Below the pieces are notes generated by a model, which worked only from the letters and a program-made list of their open reading frames with translations, had not been told where the DNA came from and ran no database searches. From contig JBBAFH010000004.1 of NCBI GenBank assembly GCA_041655535.1, forward strand, positions 4,276-68,275: a DNA stretch of 64,000 nucleotides, read 5' to 3'. Within the stretch, counting starts at the first letter, position 1, and each line of letters begins with the position of its first letter. The position numbers were made by a program, and so were the translations under genes. Positions 44,876 to 44,961 of this stretch are shown one piece after another. Origin of the DNA: Bacilli bacterium. Its GTDB lineage: Bacteria; Bacillota_I; Bacilli_A; RF39; UBA660.

Positions 44876-44904
44876 TTACTATTCTTATAAAATTAGTGTA
44901 TAAT
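44876..44904 (+). promoter_or_regulatory. Outward-facing extended -10 promoter at the right end of the element
   Basis: -35 TTACTA, a 17-nt spacer, TGTATAAT (extended -10). It faces the right terminal inverted repeat and the junction. Confidence 0.5.
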
Positions 44905-44961
44905 ATAATTATCTTATCAAGCGATAAGGGGGTAACAACCTTTATCTAACTGGCTCCAAAT

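Follow-up and report, generated by a model that had tools for sequence, protein, structure and literature searches.

The 64,000-nucleotide stretch of DNA analysed here (contig JBBAFH010000004.1 of a Bacilli bacterium; hereafter the window) carries an inserted mobile element, and its positions 44876-44958 are best explained as the right-end control region of this ~6.3-kb integrative mobilizable element, which sits at the CCA end of a tRNA-Gly gene. The best-supported reading, to which we give slightly better than even chances, is that the region belongs to a circularisation-dependent switch that combines a right-end promoter with RNA pairing between the two ends of the element. Two observations carry this reading. 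An outward-facing TATAAT hexamer lies at a similar distance from the junction in all six right ends that were located, and the leader predicted to start from it is complementary, in the same six loci, to the 5' arm of a hairpin (hairpin e) directly upstream of the element's first gene, orf1. The anatomy of the element, the conservation of these features and the complementarity were read directly from the compared loci.

In the integrated state, the right-end promoter would make only an ~85-nt RNA that runs across the junction and stops at the presumably displaced terminator of the tRNA gene (44969-44990), and read-through from the tRNA into the left end would be stopped or silenced by hairpin e (38731-38763). 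Excision would join the two ends, so that the right-end transcript crosses the attachment site of the circle, attP. Its leader (44928-44953) would then pair with the 5' arm of hairpin e while the 3' arm is still to be transcribed, so that the terminator and ribosome-binding-site trap would fail to form. This would allow expression of orf1, and the recombinase and relaxase downstream may be expressed with it. The activity of the promoter, the pairing of the RNA and the effect of that pairing are the parts of this mechanism that we infer.

Conservation of an outward -10 element

Right ends were located for six loci of three lineages, namely the window and L083; L005; and L006, L007 and L008. Recombinase identity between the three lineages is 37-40%, and at each of the six ends the tRNA end is directly repeated and a recombinase half-site lies in inverted orientation. 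The right ends of L082, L085-L087, L091/L098 and L097 were beyond the retrieved DNA or not recognisable. In all six located ends an outward TATAAT precedes the junction repeat by 41-48 nt, by 41-45 nt in L005-L008 and by 43 and 48 nt in the window, where two copies overlap (coordinates of all features are given in Table 2). The sequence between the hexamer and the junction has diverged in L005-L008 while the hexamer has kept its position. Calculated from the TATAAT frequency of each locus, the joint chance of finding the hexamer within a 9-nt slot in both additional lineages is ~4e-4. Positional conservation in three lineages thus argues that the -10 element is under selection; the -35 element is not conserved.

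The final 27 nt of the element are identical in the window and L083, and the block of homology between them begins at TGTATAAT, which is also present in L007 and L008. Upstream of TGTATAAT, L083 has an unrelated terminator hairpin and no -35 element. The right end of L005 reads TTGATA-17-TATAAT, an 11/12 match. Promoters dominated by their -10 element are common in very low-GC Bacilli and Mollicutes, and the GC (guanine plus cytosine) content of the window is ~27%. We read the outward promoter as one probably defined mainly by its -10 element, with a predicted transcription start near 44911-44916.

The earlier note on this DNA had described a strong promoter made of TTACTA, a 17-nt spacer and an extended -10 element. 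The motifs, the 17-nt spacing between TTACTA and TATAAT and the outward direction are as described there. The -10 hexamer has the consensus sequence but is not a canonical extended -10 element: the TG directly precedes the first TATAAT (44899-44904) and so lies at -14/-13, compared with -15/-14 in TGnTATAAT. Nor was the strength of the promoter borne out, with a -35 hexamer matching at three of six positions and promoter-like sites no commoner than in shuffled sequence.

A conserved hairpin in front of orf1

The left ends share a conserved order of half-site, hairpin c, hairpin e and the ATG of orf1. Hairpin e formed in 11 members of the clade when each sequence was folded separately, with stems of 12-17 bp, z-scores of -4 to -7 and 2-4 G.U pairs in each. 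The sequence of its outer stem varies between lineages, and across the clade its stability on the plus strand exceeds that on the minus strand by 4-11 kcal/mol (7.1 kcal/mol in the window). The G.U pairs, the strand asymmetry and the varying stem together indicate that hairpin e is a plus-strand RNA structure. Its 3' arm holds the Shine-Dalgarno sequence of orf1 and its T-run abuts the ATG, and it is therefore predicted both to resemble a terminator and to sequester the ribosome-binding site of orf1.

In the window (tRNA at 38577-38650, orf1 ATG at 38764) and in all relatives, the first gene is co-oriented with and close to the 3' end of a tRNA gene. A promoter for orf1 inside the left end was considered and rejected, as no consistently spaced pair of -35 and -10 elements was found there by eye. 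Transcription of orf1 would therefore have to begin outside the left end, at the tRNA promoter when the element is integrated and at the right end when it is circular. The product of orf1, a conserved protein of 95-102 amino acids, matched no Pfam or PHROG family, and its confident AF2 model (predicted local distance difference test score, pLDDT, 84.5) had no Foldseek match in PDB or BFVD. In L006 (position 7014) the start codon of orf1 is ATA rather than ATG, with the hairpin and the right end intact; L006 may be a decaying copy.

Hairpin c (GCTACCCCATT / AATGGGGTAGC in the window) lacks a T-run in this lineage; in L005-L010 it has one and is a true terminator. In these distant relatives the hairpin after the junction (91-121 in L005, ~15-50 nt past the tRNA in L006-L010) is a canonical T-run terminator whose 5' arm lies within the recombinase half-site. 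The elements of the distant relatives thus appear to bring the tRNA gene a replacement terminator, and the window lineage appears to have kept the hairpin but not the T-run.

Complementarity between the right-end leader and hairpin e

The predicted right-end leader was complementary to the 5' arm of hairpin e in six of six loci (Table 1). Background duplex energies were -5 to -7 kcal/mol with a standard deviation of ~2.5 (-6.9 +/- 2.4 for the window), and between 1 and 12 of 3000 random windows paired as well. In the window, the right-end segment has 20 nt complementary to 38722-38744. The paired sequences are unrelated between lineages, and a compensatory change was found between L006 and L008. 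In L005-L008 the paired segment lies outside the recombinase half-site and begins at the predicted +1.

Simple minimum free energy folding of the window junction at equilibrium retains hairpin e, and ensemble and prefix calculations were added for this reason. In the prefix calculation, the RNA is folded with the 5' arm of hairpin e made and the 3' arm not yet made, as a proxy for co-transcriptional folding. Its results were more uniform than those at equilibrium, and all of these values are predictions. The 5' arm of hairpin e paired with the right end in every locus under the prefix condition, and at equilibrium hairpin e was largely lost from the junction transcript in L005-L008. In these four loci the attP palindrome additionally occupies the 5' arm of terminator c, with a probability of ~0.9.

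Table 1. Predicted pairing of hairpin e in transcripts that enter from the tRNA gene or cross the joined ends
Locus	Duplex of right-end leader and hairpin e 5' arm (kcal/mol)	Mean probability of hairpin e stem, tRNA read-through	Mean probability of hairpin e stem, junction transcript	Probability of hairpin e 5' arm pairing with right end, 3' arm not yet made
Window	-24.0	0.88	0.26 or 0.71, by assumed start	0.92
L083	-15.7	0.99	0.97	0.77
L005	-17.3	0.95	0.06	0.89
L006	-17.8	0.95	0.04	1.00
L007	-17.7	0.94	0.00	0.91
L008	-19.5	0.92	0.00	1.00

Evaluation of the proposed switch

Several results weigh against the switch. For the promoter, no -35 element is recognisable by eye in L083, L007 or L008. 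The promoter-like sites in 43000-47000 number 28, against 32.2 +/- 5.1 in shuffled sequences, and among the 240 TATAAT hexamers on both strands of the window, 134 have a -35 element matching at three or more of six positions at a distance of 16-18 nt. The right-end promoter was itself not listed by the promoter scan, owing to its 3/6 match in the -35 element. Taken within this AT-rich window alone, it is at chance level and unremarkable. For the RNA, equilibrium folding predicts no switch in L083 (0.99 to 0.97), and the equilibrium switch in the window is partial and depends on the assumed start (0.26 or 0.71). Hairpin e was not flagged by the terminator scan, which probably missed it because the T-run pairs with an upstream A-run. 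The comparative base is small, with only six right ends from three lineages to support statements about the clade. Finally, an empty attachment site was not recovered in exact-protein look-ups with the recombinase (both candidate starts), the left-flank peptidase and the right-flank DHH gene; the first two proteins gave no match, and the DHH look-up returned only a contig 100% identical to the window.

The chance-level frequency of such sites raises the reading that the region is an AT-rich intergenic stretch with no function beyond that of the recombinase half-site. The 134 equal or better TATAAT sites, the lack of enrichment over shuffles and the 567 perfect palindromes of the window (see below) agree with it. 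They do not account for a -10 position kept in three lineages or for a complementarity between leader and hairpin that is significant in six of six loci, and we regard pure coincidence as quite improbable.

The end-to-end complementarity could also be a DNA-level inverted repeat bound by protein, and this too counts against the switch; in the window lineage the complementary segment and the recombinase half-site coincide. In its full form this explanation holds that the terminal block is an extended attP or an accessory protein-binding region for the recombinase or the orf1 protein, that the TATAAT and the complementarity are by-products of AT-rich inverted repeats and that there is no functional outward promoter. 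A third half-site-like copy, motif d, in the left end fits it, as do the chance-level promoter and the block shared with L083, which at ~78-80% identity is no better kept than other DNA that the two share. In L005-L008, however, the complementary segment lies outside the half-site and ~34 and 48 nt from the crossover on the two ends, a poor fit to symmetric protein binding, and the predicted start is the first base of that segment. The TATAAT also holds its position amid diverging surroundings, and hairpin e, with 2-4 G.U pairs in each member, is far less stable when folded from the opposite strand. We therefore consider a purely DNA-level role unlikely.

A stand-alone small RNA (~44911-44995), made when the element is integrated and acting in trans on the orf1 leader or another target independently of circularisation, was also weighed. 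The 88-nt segment folds into two hairpins with an intrinsic terminator at its end (-22.3 kcal/mol, z -3.68), and the 20 nt complementary to 38722-38744 would provide a target. The z-score, however, comes largely from the host terminator, the 3' part of the RNA is host sequence that differs at every insertion site, and no Rfam family reached threshold; across the Rfam search only tRNA was matched. Moreover, the equivalent sequence of ICEKp1, a Klebsiella element discussed below, was shown to work in cis, in a reporter construct that carried it ahead of the leader with the terminator. A trans-acting RNA independent of circularisation is thus improbable.

The circularisation-dependent switch remains the reading we favour. 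A more specific form of it, which we hold tentatively and at somewhat less than even chances, is a split riboregulator assembled by recombination. The right end would supply a promoter and an antiterminator (anti-sequestor) leader, the left end would supply one or two terminator hairpins, and attP would join them, so that excision turns on a conserved, structurally novel protein of 100 amino acids and, in some lineages, the recombinase as well. The pairing would be maintained by covariation across the clade, and the half-site of the window element would double as antiterminator RNA.

The recombinase promoter and the reach of the right-end transcript

The recombinase of the window element has a promoter of its own, TTGACA-16-TATAAT, the only 12/12 match in the window. 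Together with the motif AAAGGCGAAGTAGTATGTAT it is conserved in the relatives with 84% identical recombinases and in L002 (41%). In folding calculations the upstream context leaves the leader terminator that follows this promoter unchanged. Within 39062-39160, the leader hairpin with its T6 lies just before the TTG start codon and has no Rfam match; the segment could be an attenuator or an ~70-nt small RNA. In L005 no such promoter lies between orf1 and the recombinase.

Because a conserved consensus promoter of its own, followed by a stable leader terminator, precedes the recombinase in the window lineage, this gene would not depend on the switched promoters, and the right-end promoter may gate orf1 only, a further point against the switch in its widest form. 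The earlier note had proposed that in the excised circle the right-end promoter reads across attP into an operon of a hypothetical gene, the integrase (recombinase) and the mobilization gene. The predicted transcript would indeed cross attP. Its drive of the latter two genes is doubtful in the window, where hairpin e precedes orf1 and the recombinase has its own promoter and terminator, and is more plausible in L005 because no promoter separates orf1 from the recombinase there. The idea of an expression switch that depends on circularisation thus survives as the best reading, in predicted form and with direct experimental precedents in ICEKp1, ICEclc and Tn4451, with the recombinase and mobilization genes as uncertain targets. 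For the integrated state the prediction agrees with the earlier note: a transcript would run ~45 nt to the junction and then encounter the terminator at 44969-44990, which is best explained as the tRNA gene's own, displaced by the insertion.

The palindrome and the XRE regulator

The palindrome CTTATC-AAGC-GATAAG is present at 44913-44928 as the earlier note had stated. Its suggested role as an operator of the divergent XRE regulator did not hold up, as the palindrome is neither kept across relatives nor linked to an XRE gene. Perfect palindromes with 6-bp arms and gaps of 0-10 nt occur 567 times in the window, and the pattern with up to two mismatches has 4 matches against 3.99 expected. The right-end block of L083 includes a degenerate form of the palindrome, and L083 has no XRE gene. 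The palindrome is absent from L005-L008; the multiple alignment places its left half opposite the beginning of the complementary leader in L006-L008.

The broader alternative that the region is a divergent control region of the XRE gene, with the palindrome as operator and a leftward XRE promoter as the main one, draws on the adjacent and divergent position of the gene, on a promoter-like site on the minus strand (44876 to 44848, 9/12) and on an imperfect palindrome, ACTATTCTTATAAAATTAGT, at 44878-44897 in the spacer of the right-end promoter. Against this, L083 retains the right-end block without an XRE gene, and the 58% identical XRE gene of L082 has an unrelated upstream region with CTACA-N6-TGTAG repeats, the homology between the window and L082 ending at 44731. 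The palindrome is also single, at chance frequency and absent from L005-L008. The palindrome was accordingly rejected as an XRE operator, and we rate the XRE reading as a whole as very improbable. The imperfect palindrome at 44878-44897 is a weak candidate for an alternative XRE site. In L082 (12975-13030) the XRE gene is flanked by repeats of the ACTACA-N6-TGTAGT type, whose resemblance to ACTATTCTTATAAAATTAGT (ACTA..TAGT) is weak.

An inverted repeat with 11-bp arms, AATACCAGCAT / ATGCTGATATT, at 44793-44819 lies across the XRE start codon (44803); on the minus strand it was flagged as resembling a terminator. On L001, a contig identical to the window, the gene caller placed the XRE start at Met23.

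The element and its attachment site

The element runs from 38651 to ~44952 in the order orf1, large serine recombinase, MobV relaxase, cargo and XRE, and the cargo consists of a DUF7689 protein and two hypothetical proteins (main genes in Table 2). Within 38400-45100, GCTCCA is found at 38645 and 44953 only, and the same repeat logic holds in L005-L008. Imperfect inverted half-sites surround the two copies (CCAGTTGCGAGAAAGTTGCTACCCC on the left, GGGGGTAACAACCTTTATCTAACTGG on the right), so the element end with an inverted repeat that the earlier note had proposed is confirmed, and its attachment site is a tRNA-Gly gene. Joining the two ends gives AACTGG-CT-CCAGTT, with equivalent inverted repeats in L005-L008, and from its sequence this joint would be a typical attP of a large serine recombinase. 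Motif d (CAGTTAGATAAAAGGTTGTTCC), the third half-site copy, lies 72 nt inside the left end and, of the two left-end copies, resembles the reverse complement of the right half-site more closely than does the true half-site.

The hairpin at 44969-44990 begins 11 nt past the right GCTCCA, and analogous hairpins follow the junction in L005 and L083. Because of this position it is best read, on the plus strand, as the probable displaced terminator of tRNA-Gly; on the minus strand it would serve as the terminator of the convergent DHH gene (45032-46024). An origin of transfer at the right end was rejected, since the window and L083 share the end block while their relaxase genes are unrelated (homology ends at 40921). 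L083 has a 340-bp gap before its mobilization gene.

Table 2. Positions of features at the two ends of the element and of its main genes
Feature	Position	Strand	Remarks
tRNA-Gly promoter, TAGACA-17-TATAAT	38540..38568	+	11/12, promoter scan; candidate source of read-through into the integrated element
tRNA-Gly(gcc)	38577..38650	+	ARAGORN; Rfam tRNA, 68.6 bits; insertion exactly at the encoded CCA end
Left junction direct repeat GCTCCA (attL core)	38645..38650	+	tRNA 3' end
Left recombinase half-site (P')	38648..38672	+	Inverted copy of the right-end half-site; kept beside different tRNAs in relatives
Hairpin c	38665..38704	+	No T-run in the window lineage
Motif d, third half-site-like copy	38722..38743	+	Complementary to the right-end leader; the 5' arm of hairpin e is formed by its 3' part
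Hairpin e	38731..38763	+	14-bp stem and T6; -16.4 kcal/mol, z -6.0, 2 G.U pairs
orf1, first gene of the element	38764..39072	+	102 amino acids in the window
Recombinase promoter, TTGACA-16-TATAAT	39062..39089	+	Kept in relatives
Leader hairpin and T-run before the recombinase start codon	39116..39158	+	Stem probability 0.63-0.78 in all contexts
Large serine recombinase	39181..40929	+	TTG start, 582 amino acids; Pfam Resolvase, Recombinase, Zn_ribbon_recom; 100% identical to P0001 from a 'Bacilli bacterium' metagenome-assembled genome (MAG)
Mob_Pre (MobV) relaxase	40938..42179	+	E 9.9e-32
XRE/HTH_26 regulator, last gene of the element	44576..44803	-	Faces away from the right-end promoter; 58% identity with the XRE of L082
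Proposed -35, TTACTA	44876..44881	+	3/6 against TTGACA; in DNA common to no relative
Outward -10, two overlapping TATAAT	44899..44904 and 44904..44909	+	Position kept in relatives
Palindrome CTTATC-AAGC-GATAAG	44913..44928	+	Lineage-specific; at most a 5'-terminal hairpin of the transcript
Right recombinase half-site (P)	44928..44953	+	Identical in L083; as RNA, the leader segment complementary to motif d and the 5' arm of hairpin e
Right junction direct repeat GCTCCA (attR core, original tRNA 3' end)	44953..44958	+	Sequence search
Bidirectional intrinsic terminator	44969..44995	both	9-bp stem at 44969-44990; T-runs on both strands

Relatives and target-site use

The clade (L002-L010 and L082-L100, with recombinases 37-100% identical) targets the encoded CCA end of tRNA genes, with junction repeats of 5-6 bp (GCTCCA, GCACCA or CACCA). 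Elements with recombinases 84% and 77% identical to that of the window have the same left end and different cargo, and sit at the CCA of a co-oriented tRNA gene for His, Glu, Met or Gly; recombinases 84% identical to each other use different tRNAs. L083 is inserted at a site that resembles a tRNA 3' end but is not a tRNA gene (CTCCACCA). Relatives at 37-42% recombinase identity lie just downstream of co-oriented tRNA-Leu, tRNA-Phe or tRNA-Gly genes. The scan of genome contigs returned only relatives at no more than 42% identity, the metagenome scan returned three loci and no new right end, and two scans of viral contigs returned nothing. In PLSDB there was no meaningful match to the right-end DNA, and plasmid-borne recombinases were at most 33% identical.

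Cargo is wholly different between elements with near-identical recombination modules. It includes a DNA methylase, MutH and RnlA/RnlB in L091/L098 (5900-12440), Amidase_6 in L083 (9088-12182) and PIF1 and ResIII helicases in L097 (13500-19945). In the window, L007, L009, L010 and L097, elements whose recombinases are only 37-84% identical occupy the 3' end of tRNA-Gly(gcc), which suggests that this site is an insertion hotspot in Bacilli MAGs; the tRNA ends in CACTTGCTCCA in three of these loci, the window, L009 and L097.

The targeting of tRNA CCA ends is itself unusual, because a review of mobilizable elements describes those with serine recombinases as inserting within genes or with low specificity and assigns tRNA 3' ends to tyrosine integrases (PMC5704250).

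Comparison with known systems and significance

The closest parallel is ICEKp1 of Klebsiella pneumoniae (Liu et al., Nucleic Acids Res 2026; PMC13023037). In that integrative and conjugative element (ICE), experiments showed a displaced tRNA-Asn terminator, attenuation by 5'-UTR (untranslated region) stem-loops of the int transcription driven by the tRNA promoter, and the use of a promoter at the 3' end when the element is excised. A 15-bp sequence at the 3' end relieves the terminator, and its pairing with stem-loop 3 was suggested only (PMC13023037). Similar behaviour was reported for ICEEc1 (PMC13023037). The element of the window shares with ICEKp1 the tRNA 3' end, the co-oriented first gene and, as predicted from sequence, the leader stem-loops; it would also have the displaced tRNA terminator at the far end, a 3'-end promoter and a terminator-relieving 3'-end sequence. 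ICEKp1, however, is a large conjugative proteobacterial element whose integrase is the first gene and has no promoter of its own, whereas the window element is a 6.3-kb mobilizable element of an uncultured low-GC member of the Bacilli with a large serine recombinase. Its gated first gene is a 102-amino-acid open reading frame, and its recombinase has its own consensus promoter and leader terminator. The distance from the predicted start to the junction is 35-45 nt, compared with 15 bp in ICEKp1. The integrases of ICEKp1 and ICEclc are both tyrosine recombinases.

In ICEclc, which is integrated at tRNA-Gly, the outward promoter Pcirc at the far end drives the integrase only once the element is circular (PMC13023037). 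The window element, likewise integrated at tRNA-Gly, would also direct a promoter outward from its far end. No RNA antiterminator pairing is described for ICEclc, and its host phylum and promoter type differ. The original work on Pcirc is that of Sentchilo et al. (2003).

For TnpX of Tn4451/Tn4453, Lyras and Rood (2000; cited in PMC13023037) described a promoter of the circular intermediate which, by the title of their paper, arises at the joint. Recombination of Tn4451 takes place at a 2-bp sequence, and its target specificity is low (PMC5704250). Like the window element, Tn4451 is a small mobilizable element of clostridial type that combines a large serine recombinase with a MobV relaxase; its circular form activates expression of the recombination module, as may also happen here. 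The joint promoter of Tn4451 reportedly takes its -35 from one end and its -10 from the other, and the crossover dinucleotide is GA. In the window element, by contrast, the whole -10 is found within the right end, 43-48 nt from the junction, and the clade targets tRNA CCA ends with a 5-6-bp repeat rather than a 2-bp site. A hybrid joint promoter of the Tn4451 type was rejected, as the reconstructed junction contains no split promoter and the -10 falls wholly in the right end.

Two further systems are related in logic. In the sib retroregulation of phage lambda, degradation by RNase III from the 3' end represses int when attP is intact, so that there, as here, an RNA structure assembled or split by the state of attP controls a recombination gene; the split element of the window lies at the 5' end and is predicted to activate. 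In the circles of IS911, IS30 and IS2, which encode DDE transposases, joining of the ends creates a promoter for the transposase gene or links one to it; these promoters are hybrids of the two inverted repeats, and the tRNA, terminator and antiterminator logic is lacking. The concept of such a switch is thus already known from tyrosine-integrase ICEs and from Tn4451, but not in this type of element.

Mobile elements need brief, state-restricted expression of their recombination and transfer genes. If the proposed switch is correct, small mobilizable elements with serine recombinases, in uncultured Bacilli of the gut or rumen type, would have evolved the same logic, and an attP half-site could function as an RNA antiterminator as well as a site for protein. 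The three diverged lineages would then provide covariation-type support for the RNA pairing, the kind of evidence that the authors of the ICEKp1 study called missing. The clade of large serine recombinases that targets tRNA CCA ends is also relevant to the annotation of genomic islands and to recombinase engineering.

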